This document shows, piece by piece, positions 34,811 through 46,431 of a stretch of DNA of 64,000 nt. The DNA lies in the NCBI GenBank assembly GCA_016700335.1, contig CP065014.1, positions 1,221,479 to 1,285,478 on the forward strand, given 5' to 3'. This DNA is from Chlorobiota bacterium (GTDB lineage: Bacteria > Bacteroidota > Ignavibacteria > OLB7). The stretch's first letter is position 1. The number at the start of each line of letters is the position of its first letter. Below the pieces are notes generated by a model, which was not told where the DNA came from, made no database searches, and saw only the letters and a list, made by a program, of their open reading frames with translations. The translations under genes and the position numbers were made by a program.

Positions 34811-35256
34811 TTAGTATGTCCATTCTCTGTGGCTTACAGGTAAACGATTTAATTCCTCTTTATAAAACTTCCATTGTGGCATATGCTTTTCCATCAAGGT
34901 CAGGAAACGGTCGTTGTGATGTCTTTCTGTAAAATGTATCATTTCGTGAACCACAATATATTCCAAACAATGCAAAGGTTTTTTTGCCAGTTCTAAGTTT
35001 ATCCAAATTCTTTTTTTCTCAATGTTGCAAGTTCCCCATTTGGTTTTCATTTGTTTTACTTGCCAGTCAGCAACTGTAACACCAATTTGTTTTCCCATTT
35101 GTCAATAATGGGCTGAATGAGTTTTTTTAATTCTGTCCGATACCATTCATTAATGATGATTTGTCTGTCGTTGGGTTGTGCGGTTGCGTATTTTTTATTT
35201 TCAGAAGGGAAGGATAATTTTTTTAATTCAATTTTTTCAGGGTGGGGCAGGCACAC
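34811..35256 (-). pseudogene. YgjP/DUF45-like HExxH metallohydrolase remnant (typical companion of type I RM loci), frameshifted and N-terminally truncated
   Basis: Two overlapping minus-strand ORFs (35056..35256 and 34811..35098) together give ...WYRTELKKLIQPIIDKW... then ...KTKWGTCNIEKKRIWINLELAKKPLHCLEYIVVHEMIHFTERHHNDRF (WGSCS...HE.xH core). No N-terminal roughly 80 aa remain, and the IS left end abuts the first codon. Confidence 0.65.
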
Positions 35257-35300
35257 TCTTTGTCTTGTCCTGAAATAGGTTTACACTAAAAAGTGTAAAA

Positions 35301-35732
35301 ATGGACAAAAAAATCATTCAAAAAGCAGGTAAGTATTATACCTTAGAAGAAAGACATCAAATCATTCAAGAGTTAATTGCGACTGGCTGTACTAAAGTTG
35401 AAATTTGGGAAAAATATACTGGAGATATAGAAGAACATGGTCAACTACTGCGCTGGATGCGTCAACTAGGATATAATGTTGGAATTAAAACAAGAAGGCC
35501 TAATATTGTATCAAATAATTATCTCATGGTAACTAAGAAATCAAAACCAGATAAGGAGATTAAAATTGAAGATGATTCTTTTGAAAATCTTCAATTAAAA
35601 AAACGAATTGCTGATTTGGAAAAGCAGTTAAAGGATGCCGAACTAAAGGCAATTGCATTTTCTACTATGGTAGATATTGCAGAAAAAGAGTTCAATATAC
35701 CGATTAGAAAAAAGCTCAATACCAAACCATAG
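35301..35732 (+). CDS. IS3-family transposase OrfA (HTH DNA-binding plus coiled-coil)
   Basis: 143 aa with an N-terminal HTH, a leucine heptad region LKKRIADLEKQLKDAELK, and an end 6 bp before the orfB ATG. Confidence 0.8.
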   Translation: MDKKIIQKAGKYYTLEERHQIIQELIATGCTKVEIWEKYTGDIEEHGQLLRWMRQLGYNVGIKTRRPNIVSNNYLMVTKKSKPDKEIKIEDDSFENLQLKKRIADLEKQLKDAELKAIAFSTMVDIAEKEFNIPIRKKLNTKP

Positions 35733-35737
35733 AAGTA

Positions 35738-36680
35738 ATGAAAAATAATTTTTCACACATAGGATTAGCCAAGTTATGTGGATGGTTTGGTATTACTAGA
35801 CAGGCTTATTATCAGAACAATTGGGAAGGAATATCTTCTACTCTAGAAGAAGATTTGATTATACATCAAGTAAAAGAAATTCGTAAAAATCATCGTAGAA
35901 TGGGAACACGAAAACTATATGAATTATTACAACCATTTATTCTTGAACATCAAATAAAAATAGGCAGAGATGCACTATTTAATATGCTTTCGGCTAATCA
36001 TTTATTAGTAAGAAAACGTAAACGTAGAATACAAACTACGAATTCATATCATTGGTTAAGAAAATATCCTAATCTCGTACGTGAGTTTGTACCAACTAAA
36101 ATCAACCAACTTTGGGTAAGTGATATCACTTATTGGAAAATAGATACTGGAGAGCATCTTTACATCAGTTTTATTACTGATGCATATTCACATAAGATAG
36201 TAGGCTATCAAGTAGCTGAAACTATGGAAGCGATAGAAAGTATTCAAGCATTGCAAATGGCTCTCTCTGGCTTGGGGCCAGAGAGCCATTTGCAACACCT
36301 ATCCAGTAAGTAATCTCATTCATCATAGCGATAGAGGTATACAATATTGTAGCAATGCTTATGTAAAGCTATTGAAAGATAATAATATCAATATTAGTAT
36401 GACAGAAAAAGGCGATCCATTAGAAAATGCAGTGGCAGAACGTGTAAATGGAATCATCAAAGATGAGTATTTAGAAACTTATAATATTGATAACTTAAAT
36501 GATGCTAAGGAATTACTTAAAGCTGTAGTAGATTTGTATAACAATGAAAGACCACATATGAGTATTGGAAACCATACACCAAATAATATACATCATTCAA
36601 AAACAAATATAAAAACCGATAGATTATGGAAAAACTATTATCGAAAAAAAACTACATTTGTAAACACAGTTCAGGACTAA
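35738..36680 (+). pseudogene. IS3-family transposase OrfB (DDE integrase core) interrupted by a 22-bp hairpin-forming insertion
   Basis: WVSDITYW...(frame break at about 36271-36292)...LIHHSDRGIQYCS...ENAVAERVNGIIKDE. Deleting 36271-36292 in silico restores a continuous ALQMALSGNTYPVSNLIHHSDRG frame. Confidence 0.75.
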
Positions 36681-36815
36681 ATAGAAACTGTAAACTAATA
36701 GTAGGATTAATTAATTAAACTGTAAACTTTTTTTAGGACGAGTCACTTTGCCAAGTTTTGGCTTGTGTGTTGGCTTGTGCGACTTGGCAATGTGTGTGAC
36801 TGCAGCGGTGGCTCA

Positions 36816-39800
36816 TTAGTTCTGATTTTTCTTAAAGTTTTCTGCTTGTTCAAAAATCTCAACATATACTTCGTCTCTCTCAACTGGTGGATAACCAAAC
36901 TCGTCAAGCAAGAGAATTAGTCCAACTTTTAATGCTGATTTGATGTCATCTCGTTTGTTCCAGTCAGGGAATTTGGCTTGCCCGTCAACCAAGTCTTTCA
37001 CGGCTTTTGCAAGGTCAATCATTTTGTCTTCAGGATATTTGAAGTCGTATTTTATACAGAGTTCTTTGAGTATGTCGTAAAATGCTTTTTCTTCAAAGTC
37101 AATTCCTAAAGCATCTCCTGCCGAAAATTCTTTGTGAACTTCCCAAATCAAATCTGTCAAAGCGGAAGCCATTTCTTCATACACTTCACTTCTCAAAATG
37201 TCGTTTGCATCACGGTCGTTGTAGCGTTCAACCAAGGCTTGCATCTTTTTGGTAAAGTCAATTCCTTTTACTCGGTTTACTTTTTTGATTTCTGCAATTA
37301 CTTTAGCCAATAATTGTTGAAGCAATTTGATTTTTGTATTCGGCAATTTGATTTTATCAATCTTAGCCAAATAATCTTCATCAAAAATGTCTTGTTCGGT
37401 TTCTGCTTCATCACCGAGTTTGAAAATTTCTTCAACTCCTTCACTTTGCAACGCTTCTTTTATCATTTCCCGAACTTTGGTATTCATCTGTGCTGTGTCG
37501 GGTGCATTGCCTTTGGTGAGTTTGAAAACAATGGAACGAACAGCCAAATAGAAATGTGTGTAATCTCTTTCTAACTGCGTTAATTGTTCGCTTCCTGCAC
37601 AAATATCATAAGCGGCTTTCAGTCGCTTTACCAAGCCCATAAATCGGGTTTCAAATTCTTTGGATTGTTGCACATATTCGGCTGCTAAATTCAAAGTGTT
37701 TAATTGCTGAATGGTTGTGCCTTTGAAATATTTTGAATTGTCAAATGTGTGAAACAGTTTAGCCAAGAGGTCTAAATGATTTCTTACAATGATGATGGAT
37801 TCTGCAATGTCTTCAAAATTGTCTTTGTCGCCTTCGCTGTATTGCTTCAACGCCAAATTCATTTGCGTTTTGATGCCGATATAATCCACAACCAAACCTT
37901 TATTCTTTCCTTCAAACTTGCGGTTTACTCTTGATATGGTTTGAATTAAATTGTGTCGCTGAATTGGTTTGTCAATGTAAATGCTGTCCAAGAACGGCAC
38001 ATCAAAACCTGTGAGCCACATATCAACCACAATTGCAATTTTGAAATTTGATTTTTCATTTTTGAATTGTCTATCAAGTTCTTTGCGTTGGTCTTTAGTT
38101 CCCAACAAATCATACATTACCTTCGGGTCGTCTTGTCCTCTGGTGGCAATGAGTTTAATACGTTCAATAGGTTTCAGTTCTCGTTTATCTTTGTCTGTAA
38201 GTTCTGCACCTTCTTCGGCTGCTCGTATTTCGTTCCATTCGGGTTTTATTTCAATAATGTTTTTATACAACTCATACGCAATTTCACGAGTGCTACACAC
38301 AAACATTGCTTTACCTTTTACGGTTGAACCTTCTGAAACCCTTTTTTCATAATGGTTTACAAAATCTTCGGCAACTGCTTTTAAACGGTCAGGGTCGCCA
38401 ATAATGGCATACATCTGAGCCATTTCTTTTTTGCTTTGTTCAATCTGATTTTCGTTGCTTCCTATCTCGGCACATTTTGCGTAATAATCTTCAATCTCTT
38501 TGAGTTTTGAATTATTCAACAACACTTTTGCTGCTCTGCCTTCATACACAATTCGAACAGTGATTTCATCTTTCACTGATTCAGTCATTGTGTAAGCATC
38601 AACAACTTTTCCAAACACATCAAGCGTTGCATCTATTGGCGTTCCTGTAAAGCCAACAAAAGTGGCATTGGGCAATGAATCGTGTAAATATTTAGCAAAG
38701 CCGTATGTTTTAGTAACGCCTTTCTCTGTAACTTTTACTTTTTGGTCAAGGTTTACTTGGCTTCTGTGTGCTTCGTCAGAAATGCAAATCACGTTTGGTC
38801 TATCAGTAAGCAATTGTGTGTCCTCTGTAAACTTGTGAATTGTGGTTAAGAAAACGCCTCCGCTTTGTCTGCCTTGAATTAATTCTCTTAGGTTGGCTCT
38901 GCTCTCAACACTCACCACTGTATTGTCACCAATAAAGTTTTTGGCATTGGTAAATTGTCCCGAAAGTTGGTCGTCTAAATCGGTGCGGTCGGTTATTAAA
39001 ACAATTGTTGGGCTTTCAAAATATTCGCTTTTCATCAACAACCTTGTCAAGTAAAGCATAGTAAAACTCTTTCCGCAACCAGTAGCACCAAAGTATGTTC
39101 CCCCCTTTCCATTTCCGTTGGGCTTTTGTGCTTTCTTGATATTGTCATACAATGCTCTTGCAGCATAGTATTGCGGATAGCGACAAACTATTTTTTCGTT
39201 TTTCTTAGAACTATCAGGAATGTAAATGAAGTTGCGGATAATATCACGCAAACGGTTTTTATGAAACATTCCTTGTATAAGTGTAAACATACTGTCAATG
39301 CCGTCCACTTCTTTTGCCAAACCTGCTACTCTTCGCCAGCCATAGAAAAACTCATACGGAGCAAAGAATGAACCTGACTTGTTGTTTACGCCATCGCTAA
39401 TAACACAAAAAGCATTGTATTTAAACAGTTCGGGAATGTCTCTGCGGTAACGAACAGTTAATTGCTTGAAAGCATCATAAATAGTGGCTTCTTCACGAAT
39501 GGCAGATTTAAATTCAAATACCACCAAAGGCAAACCATTGATATAAACAATGCCATCAGGAATACGTTTTTCTGAACCAATAATTTCTAACTGGTTTACG
39601 AATTTGTAAATATTAGTGTCGGCAGGATAAACTTCTTCGGGTTCGGCTGCAATAGAAATTAACTGGTCTGCTTCGGGCTGGCGGTGCTTATTTAAACCTG
39701 CGTAATTGATAAGTTGAATGTAAATATCCTTTTGATTACGGTCTTCTCGTTTAAGAATAAAACCGTCAGAAAGCATTTTTAAAAATGTTTTGTTGCTTTC

Positions 39801-40028
39801 ATAAAGGTCAGAAGCAGAAAGTGATTTGAGTTGAAGAATAATAGATTTGATTTCATTTACCGTAATGCCTTGACCAGCGTATTGCGTTAAAAGAAAGGTT
39901 TGTAAATCTTCTTCTATTAATACTTCGTCAGGCTTACGAGTTATCGTAATGCCCAAGTGGTGGGGAAATCCTTCTTGCCCCAACAATTCGGTAAATGCCT
40001 TTTCTAAACTTGCCTCTGTAAATTTCAT
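36816..40028 (-). CDS. hsdR: type I restriction enzyme R subunit
   Basis: 1070 aa with the HsdR N-terminal nuclease region, SF2 helicase motifs including DEAH (VICISDEAHRSQ), and a position downstream of hsdM/hsdS. Confidence 0.92.
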   Translation of the reverse strand: MKFTEASLEKAFTELLGQEGFPHHLGITITRKPDEVLIEEDLQTFLLTQYAGQGITVNEIKSIILQLKSLSASDLYESNKTFLKMLSDGFILKREDRNQKDIYIQLINYAGLNKHRQPEADQLISIAAEPEEVYPADTNIYKFVNQLEIIGSEKRIPDGIVYINGLPLVVFEFKSAIREEATIYDAFKQLTVRYRRDIPELFKYNAFCVISDGVNNKSGSFFAPYEFFYGWRRVAGLAKEVDGIDSMFTLIQGMFHKNRLRDIIRNFIYIPDSSKKNEKIVCRYPQYYAARALYDNIKKAQKPNGNGKGGTYFGATGCGKSFTMLYLTRLLMKSEYFESPTIVLITDRTDLDDQLSGQFTNAKNFIGDNTVVSVESRANLRELIQGRQSGGVFLTTIHKFTEDTQLLTDRPNVICISDEAHRSQVNLDQKVKVTEKGVTKTYGFAKYLHDSLPNATFVGFTGTPIDATLDVFGKVVDAYTMTESVKDEITVRIVYEGRAAKVLLNNSKLKEIEDYYAKCAEIGSNENQIEQSKKEMAQMYAIIGDPDRLKAVAEDFVNHYEKRVSEGSTVKGKAMFVCSTREIAYELYKNIIEIKPEWNEIRAAEEGAELTDKDKRELKPIERIKLIATRGQDDPKVMYDLLGTKDQRKELDRQFKNEKSNFKIAIVVDMWLTGFDVPFLDSIYIDKPIQRHNLIQTISRVNRKFEGKNKGLVVDYIGIKTQMNLALKQYSEGDKDNFEDIAESIIIVRNHLDLLAKLFHTFDNSKYFKGTTIQQLNTLNLAAEYVQQSKEFETRFMGLVKRLKAAYDICAGSEQLTQLERDYTHFYLAVRSIVFKLTKGNAPDTAQMNTKVREMIKEALQSEGVEEIFKLGDEAETEQDIFDEDYLAKIDKIKLPNTKIKLLQQLLAKVIAEIKKVNRVKGIDFTKKMQALVERYNDRDANDILRSEVYEEMASALTDLIWEVHKEFSAGDALGIDFEEKAFYDILKELCIKYDFKYPEDKMIDLAKAVKDLVDGQAKFPDWNKRDDIKSALKVGLILLLDEFGYPPVERDEVYVEIFEQAENFKKNQN

Positions 40029-40051
40029 TTATAATTGTTAATGATAAATGG

Positions 40052-40423
40052 TTAATTGTTAATGTTTGCTTTAACGGATTTAATTATACTTGTAATAAGT
40101 TTGATAATTTCTACAGCATCATTGTTTATACTTTCAAATTGTTCTTGGGTTAAGTAATCAGTATCTTTTAGAAGTTCAAGCCAGTAAATAGTCTCGTTAA
40201 TTTCTTTTTGAGCTATACCCATCTTATGCTTGAAATCGTTTTTGGTTTCTGCGTGTTCCGCCTCTCTAACCATTGCACCTACAGAAGTACCACTTCTAAG
40301 TAGTTGTTTTGAAAGCACAAACTCCTTTTTCTGCTTACACAAAAACTGATAGAGTTTTACCACCCTCACCGCAAACAAAAAACTCTTATTCTTTACAATG
40401 TTATCTCTCATTACTTTAACCAT
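40052..40423 (-). CDS. four-helix-bundle protein (TIGR02436-like; formerly '23S rRNA intervening-sequence protein')
   Basis: LSKQLLRSGTSVGAMVREAEHAETKNDFKHKMGIAQKEINETIYWLELL fits the conserved S..L.RS..S...N..E pattern of this family. The family is often embedded in RM loci. Confidence 0.7.
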   Translation of the reverse strand: MVKVMRDNIVKNKSFLFAVRVVKLYQFLCKQKKEFVLSKQLLRSGTSVGAMVREAEHAETKNDFKHKMGIAQKEINETIYWLELLKDTDYLTQEQFESINNDAVEIIKLITSIIKSVKANINN

Positions 40424-41415
40424 TTATCATTAACAATTAACCATTGAACACCAACCATTCTTTCTTGAATCATTTTTAATGTTTTCAAAATGGCTTCTTC
40501 TTTTGGTAATTCTCCATATACCAAATTTTTGAAGTCACCGTTGTAAATAGTTTTCAACTCATTCCATACATTTTCTAAGTCTCTAAAAATAAGTGCTTCA
40601 CTAGGATGATAATTTAGCCATTTATTATTGTTTCTAAAACTTGCAACATCATCATTGGCTACTTTTAAAAGCATTTCATCAAATGCCGTTGATTGAAAGA
40701 ATTTAAAGAACTCATCTTGTTTAAGTAGCTGATGTAAATCGTAGGTGTGCCGTATCTTTTTCTTTAAATCATCCATTGGATTTTCGCCATAAGAAAAACG
40801 AACCAAACTCATTATTTTCTCGCAAATGGTTCTTATTGGTTCTAATGCCAACAAGTTAAAAGGAAGTAGTCCGTTTTCTTTAGCAATATCAGACTGCTTA
40901 TTATCTAGCATCATTTGGCCAACAAATGAAACGATGCTTTTGGTGGTGTAAGGTTCGTAATATCCCAACCAAGTTGATTCCAAAATGATAACATTTCTTA
41001 CTTGGCCGTAATCGCCTTTAAATTCTTTGTTGTAGGAATGTGCCGTTTTTCGATTCATCCCCATTTTATGGGTAACGCCATCGATAGGTACTTCGGGCAA
41101 TACGGCTTCTACAACTGTGCTTACTGCTTTTAATTTTGATTTTAACTTGCTGTCTGTTTCTCCTTCTCGTCTCAATACTACCAAATCAATATCTTCCGAA
41201 AAGCGTTCTATCATATTGTAACATTTGGATAGTGCCGTTCCGCCTTTAAATACCGTGTCTTTGCCAATTTCATTATTGAAAATGGTAAACAAAGCATATG
41301 TAACCCAATAGTCTTTTTCTACATAAATGGCAGGGATTTTCATTTGGTCAGCTGTAAACTGTATCGCTTGTCTGAATAAGGTTTTGTTTTCGTGCAGCTT
41401 CATATTATGTTCCAT
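40411..41415 (-). CDS. abiEii: AbiEii/AbiGii-family nucleotidyltransferase toxin (DUF1814)
   Basis: FKGGTALSKCYNMIERFSEDIDLVV is the hallmark motif. The gene overlaps the upstream AbiEi-like gene by 16 bp. Confidence 0.82.
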   Translation of the reverse strand: MEHNMKLHENKTLFRQAIQFTADQMKIPAIYVEKDYWVTYALFTIFNNEIGKDTVFKGGTALSKCYNMIERFSEDIDLVVLRREGETDSKLKSKLKAVSTVVEAVLPEVPIDGVTHKMGMNRKTAHSYNKEFKGDYGQVRNVIILESTWLGYYEPYTTKSIVSFVGQMMLDNKQSDIAKENGLLPFNLLALEPIRTICEKIMSLVRFSYGENPMDDLKKKIRHTYDLHQLLKQDEFFKFFQSTAFDEMLLKVANDDVASFRNNNKWLNYHPSEALIFRDLENVWNELKTIYNGDFKNLVYGELPKEEAILKTLKMIQERMVGVQWLIVNDKWLK

Positions 41416-42125
41416 TTTTCGGTGGTGGATAATACTTTCGCTGCACCGGTTAGTTTATACTTGGTAATGGGGTTCAATGACTTGAAAAGTGTCTCTGTTA
41501 CTTTGCCTTGCTGCAATTGCTCTAACAGTGCACCTAATAAAGCCCTTGTAGCTGGCGGATATTTTAAAGCTAAGCGAACCAAGGTGTTGATTTCCTTTTC
41601 ATCTTGTGTTTTAATAATGGCTAAAAACCTTTTGCAGGATGCTTCTATATTGGCATCTGGTATTTTTTTTATGTAGCGAATAGCATCCAGTAACTGCAAC
41701 AAAGGAATATTCTCTTTGGTGATGGTGTTTTTTTGCTTTACAAAAGCTATCGTATAGCGTTCTCTTTTAAAATTGGGGCGAACCTGATTTTTACCTATCT
41801 GTATCGTATTGCTTACCTGTGTGGTTAAGCCCAATTGGTTGTATATGCTGTAACCCGTGAGATAGCCCGTTATTTTTCCGTTTTCTTCTAATAGGTCTTT
41901 TACTACTTGTGCCTGATTGGGTTGAAGGTTGCCAAATGGGGTATTTTCGGGTTTGTAGTATTTGCCTTTGGATAGTTTGGTAATCTTGCCCGAAATCACC
42001 ATACGATTCAGGGCTTTTATTACCGCTTCTTTTTGGTTCACCTCTGTAGTAAAGTCAGCATAGGTGAATACATAGCCCTTGGGTAGTCTGTCTATGGTAA
42101 ATGCTATGTATTCAGATATTTTCAT
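41400..42125 (-). CDS. abiEi: AbiEi-family antitoxin / transcriptional regulator (wHTH, DUF6088-like)
   Basis: LPKGYVFTYADF...GKITKLSKGKYYKPE matches the AbiEi-family N-terminal wHTH pattern, and it sits immediately upstream of and overlapping abiEii. Confidence 0.72.
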   Translation of the reverse strand: MKISEYIAFTIDRLPKGYVFTYADFTTEVNQKEAVIKALNRMVISGKITKLSKGKYYKPENTPFGNLQPNQAQVVKDLLEENGKITGYLTGYSIYNQLGLTTQVSNTIQIGKNQVRPNFKRERYTIAFVKQKNTITKENIPLLQLLDAIRYIKKIPDANIEASCKRFLAIIKTQDEKEINTLVRLALKYPPATRALLGALLEQLQQGKVTETLFKSLNPITKYKLTGAAKVLSTTEKWNII

Positions 42126-42157
42126 TCTTTTTATTGTAGTGCAAAGATAATTGATTT

Positions 42158-42186
42158 GTCCAGTTTATTAGCAAAAAAACTGGACA
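42158..42186. promoter_or_regulatory. 10-bp-arm inverted repeat (tgtccagttt N9 aaactggaca) 30-60 bp upstream of abiEi; candidate operator
   Basis: Perfect arms at 42158-42167 and 42177-42186. Confidence 0.45.
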
Positions 42187-42202
42187 TTTTGAAAATTGAT
42201 TG

Positions 42203-42245
42203 AGTGGTAGTAACTTCGCAACGCAGTTGCGAAGTTACTACCACT
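42203..42245. promoter_or_regulatory. perfect palindrome with 20-bp arms and a 3-nt centre, lying between the 3' end of the upstream nuclease-like gene and abiEi
   Basis: agtggtagtaacttcgcaac-gca-gttgcgaagttactaccact. No U tract follows on the minus strand. Confidence 0.6.
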
Positions 42246-42269
42246 GAAAGTTTTGATATTTTGGATAGA

Positions 42270-43436
42270 TTAAAAAGGTAAATCATCATCTAATTCTAAC
42301 GGTTCAGTTATTACGTTTACTTGTTTTGCACCCTCAACAATAAATTTGGCTCTTTCAAAAAGTTCGTCAAATGTTAATATTTCAACATTTCTGCTGTCCC
42401 TTCTGAATAGCTCCAAAGTTTTCTTTTTTATCTCTTTTTCTAATGTATTGCTGGAATTTTCAAGTTCCTTCCAATCTCCAATTATTAAAATAACTTTTGA
42501 ATCGTGTGCTTTTTGCGTTAACGGTTCTCCGTTGATGTATTGCGGACTATCTAAACGAATTAATCCCGAAGCTTTATGTTCTAGTATTTGAGAAACAGAT
42601 TCAATCAAGTCGTTTGAAAGTTTCCAAGAGTTGGAGCGGTTTCCCTTGTTCGCAAACAAAAGGGTAGAAGGTTTCTTTAATTCAACAAAGGTTGTAAAGA
42701 AGTTATCACCCAATAGATAATCTCCAATTACGGTATTTGAGCCGTCTAACTCTGCATAAGAAAGATGAACTTCTCTTTGCAGAATTTCTTGATAGCGATA
42801 ATCTAAACCATAGCCAAAAATCCACTGATTTTTTTCAAAAAAGTATTGCCAAACTTTTTCTTCACTGTGTTTTTTCAAGCCGTTTGCTTCGGCATAGGTT
42901 TTCCAATATTCCGAATTGTTTTTTAAGTCTGAAAATATTTGAAGTCCTCGTTTTCTAAATGCTGTGTTTACAATATCCTTTGATGAAATGATACCTTCAT
43001 TTATCAAAGCTTCAACTAATTCAGCACCGCCTTTTTTTGATAATAATGTTTTAACGGAACGTATAGAATCTGCATCTAATTCTTGGTCTTCTATAATTTT
43101 CAGACGCTTTTCAGTAATTCCTTTTAAATCAATTTCGCTTATGAAAGAAAGGAATGCTTTTAATTGAGCAAAGTTGAATTTACTCAATTTGATTCTTTCA
43201 GTTTCTTTGTTGTGAACTACTTTGATTAACTCAAATCCTTCAATATCATTTTGGTCTGTTATGTAAACGACTTTCAACATCGTTCTTGGAGCAAATTTTA
43301 AAACAGCACCTTTTTCATCTTCGTGTACCACTTGAAAGAATCGCCCTGCTTCAAACTCGTGCCAGTATAAACGATTGGGTTTGTAGTTTGAAATTATCTC
43401 TTCTTCCGAAGTTGTATTTTGGGAAATCCGGCTCAT
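42270..43436 (-). CDS. candidate PD-(D/E)xK nuclease-fold protein, Shedu/DUF4263-like, nested in the type I RM operon (388 aa)
   Basis: C-terminal half: ...WIFGYGLDYRYQ...VIGDYLLGDNFFTTFVELKKPSTLLF...KVILIIGDW shows a D...D-x(n)-E-L-K arrangement consistent with a restriction-endonuclease-like core. There are no ATPase motifs, and the N-terminal roughly 200 aa are unassigned. Confidence 0.45.
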   Translation of the reverse strand: MSRISQNTTSEEEIISNYKPNRLYWHEFEAGRFFQVVHEDEKGAVLKFAPRTMLKVVYITDQNDIEGFELIKVVHNKETERIKLSKFNFAQLKAFLSFISEIDLKGITEKRLKIIEDQELDADSIRSVKTLLSKKGGAELVEALINEGIISSKDIVNTAFRKRGLQIFSDLKNNSEYWKTYAEANGLKKHSEEKVWQYFFEKNQWIFGYGLDYRYQEILQREVHLSYAELDGSNTVIGDYLLGDNFFTTFVELKKPSTLLFANKGNRSNSWKLSNDLIESVSQILEHKASGLIRLDSPQYINGEPLTQKAHDSKVILIIGDWKELENSSNTLEKEIKKKTLELFRRDSRNVEILTFDELFERAKFIVEGAKQVNVITEPLELDDDLPF

Positions 43437-43441
43437 AGTTT

Positions 43442-44531
43442 TTAATTTTCTATTGTCGCTAATTTGGAAAGTAGTAAATCTTTCAGTTCCGTTAGCTTTT
43501 GGGTTTCTAATTGCTTGAAGTTGATTTGCGTGAAAATTTTCTTGGCTAAGAAATCAAAATTAAAAGCCATTTCATCATTTGGAAGAACAGTCTCAATTTC
43601 ATAGAGCATATCATATGAAACAAATGGTTGTGAACTCCCTCTTGTGTTTGACATCAAATCTTTTGATAATAATGTCAAGTATGAGAACCATTTCAAACTT
43701 TCATGTTTTGCTAAACATTTAACACCATTGTAGGTCACGAAGTGTTTTCCAAATGCAAAAACAACCTTTCCGCAATATTCTCCCATGTGACCTATAACTG
43801 GTGCGTCTTCACTATTATATTCATCATAACCACCAATTACACCACCAGCTCCATAAATTGAAAACTGACCACCATTGTTAGGATTGGTATTCCCAATTCC
43901 ATATTGGAATTTGTATAAATCCTCAAGTGTTCCTTTTCTCCACCCCTCAGGCAAATTCTCCAAATCAATTCCCTCCACAAACCATTGCTTATAAATAGCC
44001 TGTGCGGTTTCTTCTAGCTTTTGTATCAGTTGCTGGTTTAGGGCTATGCGGTTTTGGATAACATTGTATTCTTTTACTATTTCTTTTTGTTTGTCAAGGT
44101 GCGGAATGGGTATTTGCATATCACAAAAGGATTTCCAAGGTAAACCACCTCTTACATCTGCATCGGTATAAAACCAAGCATTACGGTCAAACTCTCGTAC
44201 GAGTAAACCACATCATCAAAAATTCAGGATTAAGAATTTCGGTGTCTTTGATTTCAAATACATCATAAGCAGGTGAAACCATAAATTCTTCATCAGATTT
44301 TGACATCGAAATTGGCAAACGGTAATCTCTACCTACGTGCATTCTATTGCAAGCAAATTGATTTTTTCTTACGAGCTTGTAAACAGATAAATCAGTTCCG
44401 ACAATATTAGCAACTGAAGGCATAAAGAATTTATCAATATTAATTCCTAAAAGCTGTTCCGCTTTTTCTTCTGAGTTGCGAATTTTCAATTCCTGTATGT
44501 AATCGCCTAAGCGGCTATAATTTGATTTCAT
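43442..44531 (-). pseudogene. hsdS: type I RM specificity subunit HsdS, split by a frameshift within the first target-recognition domain
   Basis: ORF 44187..44531 carries the N-terminal TRD. ORF 43442..44119 carries the end of that TRD (IPIPHLDKQKEIV), the central conserved region, TRD2 and the C-terminal conserved region. The ORF2 frame stays open up to 44212, so the shift lies at about 44190-44215. Confidence 0.7.
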
Positions 44532-46065
44532 AACCCAAATCTTTAAACACGGTTAGTAAATCATTTTTTGAAGCTGCTTCGGCTTTCAGCAAATCCGCGA
44601 ATTCGTTTTTCAGTGTTTGCATTTTTTCATCAAAATCTATTTTCTCATCACGGTTTACAAATTCAATGTATTTGCTCGGCACGAGTGAAAAATCTTTTTT
44701 TACTACTTCTTCCAAAGTTGCAGAATAGCAGAACTCGGGAATGTTTTCAATTTCATTGCATTGCCATTGGTGGTAAGAGCCTGTAATCTTGATTATATCT
44801 TCTTCTGAAAACTGAATATATTTTTTCTCAAACGGAATTCCTATTTGTCGTAAATCCATAAATAGAATTTCCTTTTCTCTATTTCGGTAATTGCGGGTTT
44901 CATCACCAATTATTCTTGTATGAGCTTTTTTATTCTTATTCAAAATCCAAAGCGTTACACTAATGTTGGTGGTATAAAACATATCTTGTGGTAATACCAA
45001 AATCGATTCAACCAAATTATTTTCAATCAGCTTTTTGCGTATTTTATATTCTTCGCCACCACCACTCAATGCACCATTTGCCAATATAAAACCAGCAATT
45101 CCGTTTTCGGAAAGTTTGGAAACCATATTCAAAATCCAACCATAGTTGGCGTTGCTTTTTGGTGGCACATCATAACCTCTCCAACGTGGGTCGTCAATCA
45201 ATTCATTTTCGCCTCGCCAGTCTTTTTGGTTAAAAGGTGGGTTTGCCATTATGTAATCGGCTTTCAAGTCTTTGTGTTGGTCGTCCGCAAATGTGTCGGC
45301 ATCTTTTTCACCAAGGTTTGCAGAAATACCTCTTATGGCAAGGTTCATCTTTGCAAGTTTGTATGTTGTTTTGGTGTATTCCTGTCCGTAAATAGAAACT
45401 TCTTTTTGGTTTCCGTGGTGTGCTTCAATAAACTTAATGGATTGAACAAACATACCTCCCGAACCACAAGCAGGGTCATAGATAATTCCTTTGTATGGCT
45501 CAATCATTTCTGAAATAAGGCTTACAATTGTCTTTGGCGTATAGAATTCTCCTTTGCCTTTTCCTTCTGCAATCGCAAACTTTTTCAAGAAGTATTCATA
45601 CACACGCCCAACCAAATCTTGTCCTTTGTCTTTGAGTGTATTGATGCTGTCAATTTCGCTAATCAAAGAAGCCAGTTTGGTAATGTCTAAACCCAAACGA
45701 GAAAAGTAATTATCGGGCAATGCACCTTTCAAAGCTTTGTTGTCTTTTTCAATAGTATGCAAGGCTGTATCAATTATTAAAGCAATATCATTTTGTCTTG
45801 CCTTTTTAACAATGTAGCTCCAACGTGAAATTTCTTCCAAGAAAAACACATTGCTCATATTGTAGAACTCAGGCTTCTCAATATACTTTTCTTTGCCTTC
45901 GGCAATCAATTTGGTTCGGTGTTCTTCAAACTTGTCGCTTGCAAACTTTAAGAATACAAGTCCTAATACAACGTGTTTATATTCGGCTGGCTCAACGCTT
46001 CCTCTCAATTTATTTGCAGCTTCCCAAAGGGTAACTTCAATTGCTTTTTCTTTTACCTTAAACAT
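44515..46065 (-). CDS. hsdM: type I RM DNA methyltransferase subunit (N6-adenine)
   Basis: The N-terminal HsdM domain, an AdoMet motif DPACGSGGMFV, and the catalytic NPPF (IMANPPFNQKDW). The 3' end overlaps hsdS by 17 bp. Confidence 0.92.
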   Translation of the reverse strand: MFKVKEKAIEVTLWEAANKLRGSVEPAEYKHVVLGLVFLKFASDKFEEHRTKLIAEGKEKYIEKPEFYNMSNVFFLEEISRWSYIVKKARQNDIALIIDTALHTIEKDNKALKGALPDNYFSRLGLDITKLASLISEIDSINTLKDKGQDLVGRVYEYFLKKFAIAEGKGKGEFYTPKTIVSLISEMIEPYKGIIYDPACGSGGMFVQSIKFIEAHHGNQKEVSIYGQEYTKTTYKLAKMNLAIRGISANLGEKDADTFADDQHKDLKADYIMANPPFNQKDWRGENELIDDPRWRGYDVPPKSNANYGWILNMVSKLSENGIAGFILANGALSGGGEEYKIRKKLIENNLVESILVLPQDMFYTTNISVTLWILNKNKKAHTRIIGDETRNYRNREKEILFMDLRQIGIPFEKKYIQFSEEDIIKITGSYHQWQCNEIENIPEFCYSATLEEVVKKDFSLVPSKYIEFVNRDEKIDFDEKMQTLKNEFADLLKAEAASKNDLLTVFKDLGYEIKL

Positions 46066-46431
46066 ACCAAAGTTGGTTGGATTTGTCTGGTTTTGTTGTT
46101 CATGGAGTTGAGATTTATTATTTGATTTTGTTAAATGTAGGTTGAATCGTCTGCAACACTTTCAGTTAACATACAAAAATACACTTATAATTCATATTAA
46201 TTAAAATCTAGAATATAATTATTATCTCAAGTAATTACATTGTTTGCATCAACTCTTGAATGATATTTTTTTACTAGTAAAATGTAAAATAATTACCTAA
46301 CCTTTAATTATATTTTTATCAATGTTTTACACTTTTTATCTTCAACAATTTTAGAACAATTAGTTTAAATGTTATTGTATGTGTTTAACTTATTTAAAAA
46401 CTTATATTTGTAAAAATATTTACAACACAAA

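Follow-up and report, generated by a model that had tools for sequence, protein, structure and literature searches.

A probable AbiE-family toxin-antitoxin module among the cargo genes of a type I restriction-modification operon in a Chlorobiota bacterium

A stretch of 64,000 nucleotides of a Chlorobiota bacterium (GenBank assembly GCA_016700335.1, contig CP065014.1, positions 1,221,479 to 1,285,478; in the following "the window", with positions counted from its first letter) was investigated for two overlapping genes, abiEi and abiEii, coding for a putative antitoxin and a putative toxin. They are located in an operon for type I restriction-modification (RM), in which hsdM, hsdS (frameshifted), sduA, abiEi, abiEii, a four-helix-bundle gene and hsdR follow each other on one strand (Table 1). 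The original prediction for this DNA had described an AbiEi/AbiEii pair, classified as type IV toxin-antitoxin (TA) or abortive infection system and embedded in the type I RM operon. The embedding was confirmed, as hsdM, hsdS and hsdR were found on the same strand by Pfam and PADLOC. It is very probable that the pair is an intact AbiE-family TA/abortive-infection module, carried together with other cargo genes between hsdS and hsdR of a type IC-like RM operon that was acquired by horizontal transfer.

Table 1 Features of the abiE locus and of the surrounding island (positions in the window)
Feature	Position	Strand	Size or state	Basis
abiEi, putative winged helix-turn-helix repressor/antitoxin, DUF6088 family	41400..42125	-	241 aa	Pfam, PADLOC, AlphaFold2, Foldseek, dN/dS
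abiEii, putative DUF1814 nucleotidyltransferase toxin	40411..41403	-	330 aa from ATG 41403 (likely start)	Pfam, PADLOC, motifs, fold matches
abiE promoter region	42133..42175	-		sequence reading and sigma-70 scan
Predicted AbiEi operator, TGTCCAGTTT-N10-AAACTGGACA	42157..42186	-		inverted repeat conserved across loci
Hairpin between the end of sduA and the abiE promoter	42200..42248	-	perfect 20-bp stem	inverted repeat
sduA (Shedu, DUF4263 nuclease)	42270..43436	-	388 aa	Pfam SduA_C 1.1e-21; PADLOC SduA PDLC00392 3.7e-124 over 9-372
hsdS, specificity gene	43442..44531	-	split: 114 aa (44187-44531) and 225 aa (43442-44119)	Pfam Methylase_S, PADLOC Specificity_I
hsdM, RM methyltransferase, first operon gene	44515..46065	-	516 aa, intact	Pfam N6_Mtase 2e-101, HsdM_N 1e-22; PADLOC MTase_I 4e-147
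Four-helix-bundle gene (23S rRNA intervening-sequence protein family)	40052..40411	-	ORF to 40423, 123 aa	Pfam 23S_rRNA_IVP 5e-30; TIGR02436 8e-32
hsdR, restriction subunit	36816..40028	-	1070 aa, intact	Pfam HSDR_N, SWI2_SNF2, T1R_D3-like, T1RH-like_C; PADLOC REase_I 1249 bits
IS3-family element between hsdR and the YgjP-like gene, broken transposase	35301..36680	+	ORFs of 143, 191 and 102 aa	Pfam rve, rve_3, rve_2 on two ORFB pieces
YgjP-like/M48-type metallopeptidase remnant	34811..35256	-	truncated and frameshifted	Pfam YgjP-like 6e-32, profile 125-206 of 207

In the list of open reading frames (ORFs) abiEii starts at the ATG at 41415 and comprises 334 aa (40411..41415, minus strand). The listed frames of abiEi and abiEii have positions 41400-41415 in common, and the claimed overlap of 16 bp is correct for these frames. 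However, most homologues of AbiEii have a length of 329-331 aa, and their first residue corresponds to M5 of the 334-aa frame. The ATGA junction, in which the ATG of abiEii lies over the TGA of abiEi (41400-41403), was kept in practically all related loci (about 78), also in those without an upstream in-frame ATG. Therefore, abiEii is likely to start at the ATG at 41403, with a functional overlap of 4 nt instead of 16 nt. With the antitoxin gene first and overlapping the toxin gene, the pair has the bicistronic AbiE layout that had been claimed. Both peptides quoted in its favour, LPKGYVFTYADF...GKITKLSKGKYYKPE and KGGTALSKCY...RFSEDIDL, were found in the ORF translations.

More than 7000 homologues were found in the databases. 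An exact-sequence look-up of abiEii gave no identical entry on record, and no match was found when a phage collection was searched with the cassette. The ratio of nonsynonymous to synonymous substitution rates (dN/dS) was computed against ten relatives, with dS from 0.03 to 1.8. Values of 0.065-0.091 were obtained for abiEi and of 0.073-0.108 for abiEii, apart from one outlier of 0.28, which belongs to a near-identical pair with few substitutions. Thus, both genes are under strong purifying selection and are maintained. Chance ORFs are ruled out by the scores of the hidden Markov models (HMMs), by dN/dS and by conservation.

AbiEii matched the Pfam family AbiEii (PF08843; DUF1814, COG2253) with 90.5 bits (cut-off 22.5; E = 2.1e-25) and the PADLOC model for AbiEii with E = 1.8e-104; no NCBIfam model matched the product of abiEi or abiEii. 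A single-sequence search of the PDB with the toxin gave noise only. With a profile of the toxin family a single PDB match was obtained, MenT4 of Mycobacterium tuberculosis, aligned at the catalytic motif (vFKGGTaLsKC...RFSeDiDl in the profile, FKGGTSLRKC...RFSTDLDF in MenT4). For a structural model built on a shallow alignment, the top eight PDB matches were all MenT3 (Rv1045/TglT) or MenT4, with probabilities of 0.96-1.00. The family assignment and these fold matches agree with the claim of a DUF1814 nucleotidyltransferase.

Motifs I and II of DUF1814 proteins were described as hG[GS]x15DhD with an arginine in motif II (PMC3985639). In the toxin of the window, F-K-G58-G59 is followed after 15 residues by D75-I-D77, with R71 four residues before D75. 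The residues G58, G59, R71, S73, D75 and D77 are invariant in the AbiEii family (22 and 29 homologues), and the same holds for K200 and R206 (CEKIMSLVRF), which by sequence reading only were placed in motif III (Lys among hydrophobic residues, plus Arg). For AbiEii of Streptococcus agalactiae, G49, R63, D67, D69, K173, R180 and D192 are required for toxicity (PMC3985639). Its phosphoacceptor is T65, located between R63 and D67, and S78 of MenT3 is the structural equivalent (10.64898/2026.01.19.700257). By spacing, R71-F-S73-E-D75-I-D77 matches R63/T65/D67/D69 of S. agalactiae, and S73 is the predicted phosphoacceptor. As far as can be read from the sequence, both ORFs of the pair are full length and retain every invariant residue of their families.

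For the antitoxin, the best E-value against the PADLOC models for AbiEi was 2.9e-59, while in Pfam the match was to DUF6088 (44.8 bits, cut-off 25; E = 1.5e-11). A search of 1.84 billion cluster representatives yielded 1352 relatives. DUF6088 was detected in 86 of 89 full-length relatives, and 32 of the 89 showed a weak match to AbiEi_4 as well. Plasmid copies of the pair are labelled by RefSeq as 'DUF6088 family protein' and 'nucleotidyl transferase AbiEii/AbiGii toxin family protein'. Since sequence and profile searches of the PDB were empty, structure prediction was needed, and the antitoxin was modelled with AlphaFold2 on an alignment of 89 sequences (pLDDT 96.8, pTM 0.90). Searching the PDB with this model (Foldseek, E<=1e-3) resulted in two entries only (three chains), 1ZEL (1e-5) and 6Y8Q (8e-5), both with a probability of 1.00. 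1ZEL is Rv2827c/MenA4, which is AbiEi-like and is paired with the DUF1814 protein Rv2826c/MenT4; its TM-score to the model is 0.59. 6Y8Q is AbiEi of S. agalactiae; the identity to the window protein in the fold alignment is 13%. According to the model, the antitoxin has the AbiEi fold, consisting of a winged helix-turn-helix (wHTH) at the N-terminus and a C-terminal domain. The claim of an AbiEi-like wHTH protein is thus supported by PADLOC and by the fold, whereas Pfam identifies DUF6088 only.

The gap between sduA and abiEi has a length of 144 nt and contains a hairpin, a palindrome and promoter elements. Two readings of the promoter were obtained. The first is of the Bacteroidota type, with TTTG (42172-42175) and the TAnnTTTG box TATCTTTG (42142-42149). 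The second is sigma-70-like, with TGGACA (42157-42162), a distance of 18 nt and TACAAT (42133-42138), and matched the scan at 10 of 12 positions. Under both readings the upstream promoter element (-35/-33) lies inside the palindrome.

For comparison, the promoter region was extracted from 74 related loci, and the antitoxins were sorted into type A (65-98% identical to AbiEi of the window) and type B (36-42%). The variant of the window, GTCCAGT-N12-ACTGGAC, was found in 49 of 51 type-A loci. In 22 of 23 type-B loci the variant TGTCAAGTTT-N10-AAACTTGACA (GTCAAGT-N12-ACTTGAC) was present. They differ by one symmetric base-pair change in both half-sites; the spacing was constant and no locus was mixed. 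The association of operator variant and antitoxin type was repeated in ten metagenome loci from an independent search. In most loci a TAnnTTT[GA] box follows the operator, at a distance of 8 nt for type A and of 16-17 nt for type B. Between the window and its closest relatives, operator and promoter do not differ. Because operator and antitoxin gene are linked, the association alone is not independent evidence. Informative are the symmetry of the change, as predicted by a two-fold-symmetric protein-DNA complex, and the fact that the palindrome is conserved although its flanks have diverged. A palindrome over the promoter that changes symmetrically with the antitoxin type is likely to be the operator of AbiEi, and negative autoregulation is predicted. 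AbiEi of S. agalactiae likewise represses via inverted repeats in the promoter, which have another sequence and spacing (PMC3985639). The half-sites have 10 bp with a 10-nt spacer in the window, in contrast to 11 bp with a 27-nt spacer (23-bp arms) in S. agalactiae.

The intergenic region between sduA and abiEi had an RNA fold z of -10. Compensatory double changes were detected in 10 of 14 stem pairs of the hairpin (17 loci). It was present at the same position in L002, L003, L005, L008, L010, L016, L018, L023, L028, L036, L041, L042, L046, L060, L063 and L066 (numbers with L denote related loci). The copies were detected by means of a looser script and of an alignment, since a rigid pattern had failed for most of them. 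Copies detectable by pattern occurred once per locus and only upstream of the abiE promoter. In L001 the right arm alone is retained, so that the recombination breakpoint lies within the hairpin loop. The hairpin is a probable terminator/insulator or cassette boundary.

In the specificity gene hsdS, codon 112 is followed by a single additional nucleotide (about 44195). No homopolymer is found there and the remainder is full length; intact HsdS homologues align with residues 1-112 in frame +1 and with residues 113-359 in frame +2. The frameshift may be an assembly error, may have inactivated the gene recently or may lead to a half-size HsdS. The type I RM system therefore consists of intact hsdM and hsdR with a split hsdS. 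The closest solved structure to HsdR is that of EcoR124I, a type IC enzyme (1e-23). The complete sduA codes for a single SduA protein with the DUF4263 nuclease domain, as in Shedu systems. Since it is located between hsdS and abiEi, the RM operon holds two embedded defence modules.

Behind abiEii, DNA comparison revealed an insertion of about 425 bp (about 40030-40455) with similarity breakpoints at about 40456 and 40029. It contains the four-helix-bundle gene and replaced the last codons of abiEii together with the usual ATGA junction of abiEii and hsdR; hsdR follows 23 nt downstream. This small gene was seen in few relatives (L011, L026, L094), and L094 repeats the order abiEii, four-helix-bundle gene, hsdR. 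It was also observed directly upstream of hsdR without abiE in L111, L126 and L161 and upstream of abiEi in L122. The gene behaves like a small mobile insert.

The YgjP-like gene behind hsdR is the usual tail gene of such RM islands. In the window this end of the island (34811-36680) is decaying. The G+C content of the island (35000-46100) is 31-38%, with 34-38% in nine of ten 1-kb windows, compared to 26-32% for the flanking housekeeping genes. The flanking tryptophanyl-tRNA synthetase (TrpRS) shares 100% identity with the enzyme of a Chlorobiota metagenome-assembled genome, while the DNA of the island is 86-98% identical to the Chitinophagaceae locus L001. With a Chlorobiota host and this similarity to a Chitinophagaceae locus, the island was likely acquired by recent transfer between phyla. 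The short-read contigs L081-L083, which come from the same organism, stop just inside hsdM. Rfam and tRNA scans of the window gave nothing, neither an RNA gene nor a tRNA integration site near the island. An empty site was sought in a related genome through TrpRS synteny, where the gene order diverges immediately. The borders of the island are therefore set by G+C content and gene content only.

The context of the pair was compared in two sets of loci. The toxin-anchored set comprised 80 genome loci, mostly from Bacteroidota, with toxins 66-96% identical to that of the window. In all 80 loci, where sequence was available, the antitoxin gene was found directly upstream of abiEii. An hsdR of the same family, or its remnant, was located downstream in 26 of the 80, 16 of them with an ATGA overlap of abiEii and hsdR, and about 40 abiE loci were outside of RM operons altogether. 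The hsdR-anchored set comprised 80 metagenome loci with HsdR proteins 85-99% identical to that of the window; 66 had enough upstream sequence. Here, hsdR was adjoined by abiEii of the window type in 11 loci and by a second toxin type in about 9. The latter is 30-32% identical, has the same motifs and is accompanied by antitoxins of type A or type-B-like ones. An abiE pair was thus next to hsdR in about 20 of 66 loci, and other cargo or none in 46. Therefore, abiE is a frequent but optional occupant of the slot between hsdS and hsdR, and an obligatory association with this HsdR clade is ruled out.

The metagenome locus L104 repeats the order hsdS-sduA-abiEi-abiEii-hsdR of the window. The gene sduA was also seen in the slot in L117 and L132. 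In RM-embedded relatives the gap between hsdS and abiEi contains Gabija GajA with UvrD helicase, AbiH, RhuM, OLD/AAA_15 ATPases, AriA-like ATPases, TIR and SLOG domains, GmrSD, Schlafen-type regulators, PDC-S05 and several ORFs without annotation (variable cargo in L021, L036, L037, L040, L046, L050, L051, L059, L060, L062 and L063). Cassettes of abiE outside of RM operons often retain the first 60-300 nt of hsdR (GGAATGAAATTCAC...) right after abiEii (L002-L005, L010, L018-L020 and L034 among others). On plasmid pEMTOL03 (L084, 8004-8330) such a stub is labelled by RefSeq as a 108-aa 'type I restriction endonuclease'. As judged from the sequence, these stubs suggest that the cassettes originated in RM operons next to hsdR and then left.

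Toxins and antitoxins were exchanged among the relatives in both directions. Toxins 77-89% identical to that of the window occurred with antitoxins 36-42% identical, and the breakpoint is at, or just inside, the start of abiEii (L011, L013, L015, L017, L026 and others, compared to L001, L060 and others). Antitoxins 78-91% identical were found with the second toxin type (L112, L124, L141, L102, L103, L117). The operator variant always tracks the antitoxin type in the shuffled loci.

For an AbiE-family module the following mechanism is proposed. By analogy with AbiE of S. agalactiae and MenAT of M. tuberculosis, AbiEii would add nucleotides to the 3'-CCA ends of tRNAs, and translation would stop. 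By the same analogy, AbiEi would bind AbiEii and induce auto-phosphorylation on S73 of R-x-S-x-D-x-D, which would switch the toxin off. The winged helix of AbiEi would bind the palindrome, leading to repression of its own operon. If the supply of AbiEi were interrupted by phage infection or loss of the island, or if the phosphorylation were reversed, the toxin would arrest the cell, and this arrest may abort the infection or penalise the loss of the island. Transcription from the AbiEi-controlled promoter probably extends into the four-helix-bundle gene and hsdR, since there is no room for a recognisable promoter before either gene. The label 'type IV' corresponds to a classification of 2014 (PMC3985639) and is dated. 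In a preprint of 2026 AbiEi was reported to bind AbiEii and to induce its auto-phosphorylation, and AbiE was reclassified as type VII (10.64898/2026.01.19.700257). The Ser/Thr at R-x-[ST]-x-D-x-D expected for type VII would be S73 in the window.

Several results speak against this assignment or against parts of the mechanism. The antitoxin reaches no Pfam AbiEi model, with DUF6088 as its sole Pfam match, and by sequence it does not belong to the AbiEi/COG5340 family. An HMM search, named in the original prediction as a check, was clearly positive for AbiEii (PF08843) and, via PADLOC, for AbiEi, but gave no Pfam AbiEi match. Searching the PDB with the antitoxin resulted in noise only for the single sequence and in no match for a profile of 89 diverse AbiEi homologues. 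The TM-score of the antitoxin model to 6Y8Q is modest (0.31-0.36), probably due to the domain orientation. The toxin model is of moderate quality (pLDDT 73.8, residues 104-148 <50), and the E-values of its PDB matches are weak (1.7e-3 to 6e-2). Motif IV (+DxxD), placed by sequence reading only, reads R222-H223-T-Y-D226; it is invariant and has His for the first Asp. In contrast to MenT1, MenT3 and AbiEii, which follow the phosphorylating route, MenT4 was reported neither to be phosphorylated nor to bind its antitoxin MenA4 (10.64898/2026.01.19.700257). As MenT4 is the partner of the best fold match to AbiEi of the window, type VII may not be the right mechanism here. That toxins and antitoxins are shuffled freely is awkward for a strictly cognate binding mechanism, under which it would not be expected. 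Finally, AbiE of S. agalactiae gave E. coli no protection against 32 coliphages, so that a defence function is not guaranteed.

The layered defence suggested by the original prediction fits the locus, where Shedu is present too, and the defence cargo of the relatives; the RM partner has a frameshifted hsdS. It is possible, but clearly the less likely reading, that the pair is mainly an addiction module, which stabilises the island or a plasmid instead of defending against phages, with residual toxin arresting cells that lost the DNA. Close relatives of the pair adjoin rep/parA on plasmids of Emticicia and Runella. Furthermore, AbiE stabilises plasmids and MosAT stabilises SXT (PMC3985639), and the lack of coliphage protection by the S. 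agalactiae system points in the same direction. In the window abiE is intact and under purifying selection, in spite of the frameshift in hsdS and the decay of the flanking IS3 and YgjP-like genes. On the other hand, the neighbours in the slot of the relatives are overwhelmingly phage-defence genes, Shedu adjoins abiE here and AbiE of Lactococcus lactis is a demonstrated abortive-infection system. Besides, the roles in addiction and in defence are not exclusive.

We regard it as rather improbable that abiE is wired to restriction. In this case the AbiEi-repressed promoter would also serve hsdR, the translation of which would be coupled to that of abiEii. The role of AbiEi would be that of a controller of restriction, and the toxin would be a PrrC-like fail-safe when restriction or host expression is blocked. 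The 16 loci with an ATGA overlap of abiEii and hsdR leave no promoter-sized gap, and abiE cassettes that moved to places outside of RM operons, plasmid pEMTOL03 among them, took 5' remnants of hsdR along. The position between hsdS and hsdR also recalls PrrC, which was described as almost exclusively embedded in type I RM loci (10.1101/2024.01.29.577857); a review puts prrC inside the type IC locus EcoPrrI. By homology, AbiEii would target tRNA as PrrC does. However, hsdR does not need abiE, as indicated by the 46 of 66 loci with 85-99% identical HsdR and no abiE next to it, and RM operons are lacking around about 40 abiE loci. In the window the four-helix-bundle gene separates abiEii from hsdR, and tight packing is common in operons.

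An inactive relic within an island under decay is a very improbable reading of the pair in spite of the damaged neighbours (hsdS frameshift, broken IS3 transposase, truncated YgjP-like gene), since both ORFs are full length with all invariant family residues, dN/dS is about 0.08, operator and promoter equal those of the closest relatives and the hsdS frameshift is a single base that could be an assembly error.

As an AbiE-family module, the pair shares several features with AbiE of S. agalactiae and L. lactis. The antitoxin gene precedes the toxin gene and overlaps it, and inverted repeats occur in the promoter. The DUF1814 toxin has hG[GS]x15DhD, the arginine of motif II and a Ser/Thr phosphoacceptor (predicted in the window) two residues before the first Asp. 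The antitoxin combines an N-terminal wHTH with a C-terminal domain of the same fold (6Y8Q). In contrast to the S. agalactiae system, the antitoxin is assigned to DUF6088 and not to COG5340/Pfam AbiEi, the toxin of about 330 aa has a longer C-terminal helical region, and motif IV, as placed by sequence reading, is RHxYD instead of +DxxD. Moreover, the pair is chromosomal and lies inside an RM operon of the FCB group. By structure, both proteins match best to MenAT of M. tuberculosis (the antitoxin to 1ZEL, the toxin to 7C46/6Y5U/6Y56), and MenT4 (Rv2826c) is the only PDB match of the toxin family by sequence profile; the identity is only 10-14%.

A comparable arrangement is known from the RptR-HsdM-HsdS-DarT-DarG-HsdR-M48 island of enteropathogenic E. 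coli (PMC12255303). There, too, a TA defence pair lies between hsdS and hsdR and a metallopeptidase gene follows hsdR; the slot was called a likely recombination hotspot for defence genes (PMC12255303). In contrast, DarTG is a DNA ADP-ribosyltransferase system and AbiE a nucleotidyltransferase system. The E. coli island is regulated by a separate small repressor at its head, whereas the antitoxin of the window has its own predicted operator and promoter in the middle of the operon. With PrrC of the type IC locus EcoPrrI the pair has in common a translation-blocking, tRNA-targeting toxin encoded in a type I RM locus, for AbiEii by analogy. PrrC is an unrelated anticodon nuclease, which is kept latent by the RM complex and has no antitoxin or promoter of its own. 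AbiEii is a DUF1814 nucleotidyltransferase with own antitoxin and promoter, and AbiE is widespread outside of RM loci; only the embedded position is shared.

Both the AbiE system and defence genes inside type I RM loci are already well known, the embedding in type I RM, BREX, DISARM and Hma loci from a 'guilt-by-embedding' survey (10.1101/2024.01.29.577857). The locus is a clean and widely distributed example, which leaves the knowledge of AbiE and of embedded defences unchanged and adds to it modestly. For this clade the structural link between DUF6088 and AbiEi, the operator with two variants, the ATGA coupling of abiEii and hsdR with the travelling hsdR stub, and the free shuffling of toxins and antitoxins appear to be undescribed. 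For annotation this means that a DUF6088 protein beside an AbiEii toxin can be named AbiEi-type antitoxin/repressor on structural grounds. The predicted operator, with two variants one symmetric base pair apart that track two antitoxin types, offers a ready specificity-swap system for DNA recognition by wHTH proteins. Furthermore, the locus illustrates the type I RM operon of the FCB group as a scaffold, which collects interchangeable defence genes in the gap between hsdS and hsdR and moves between phyla.

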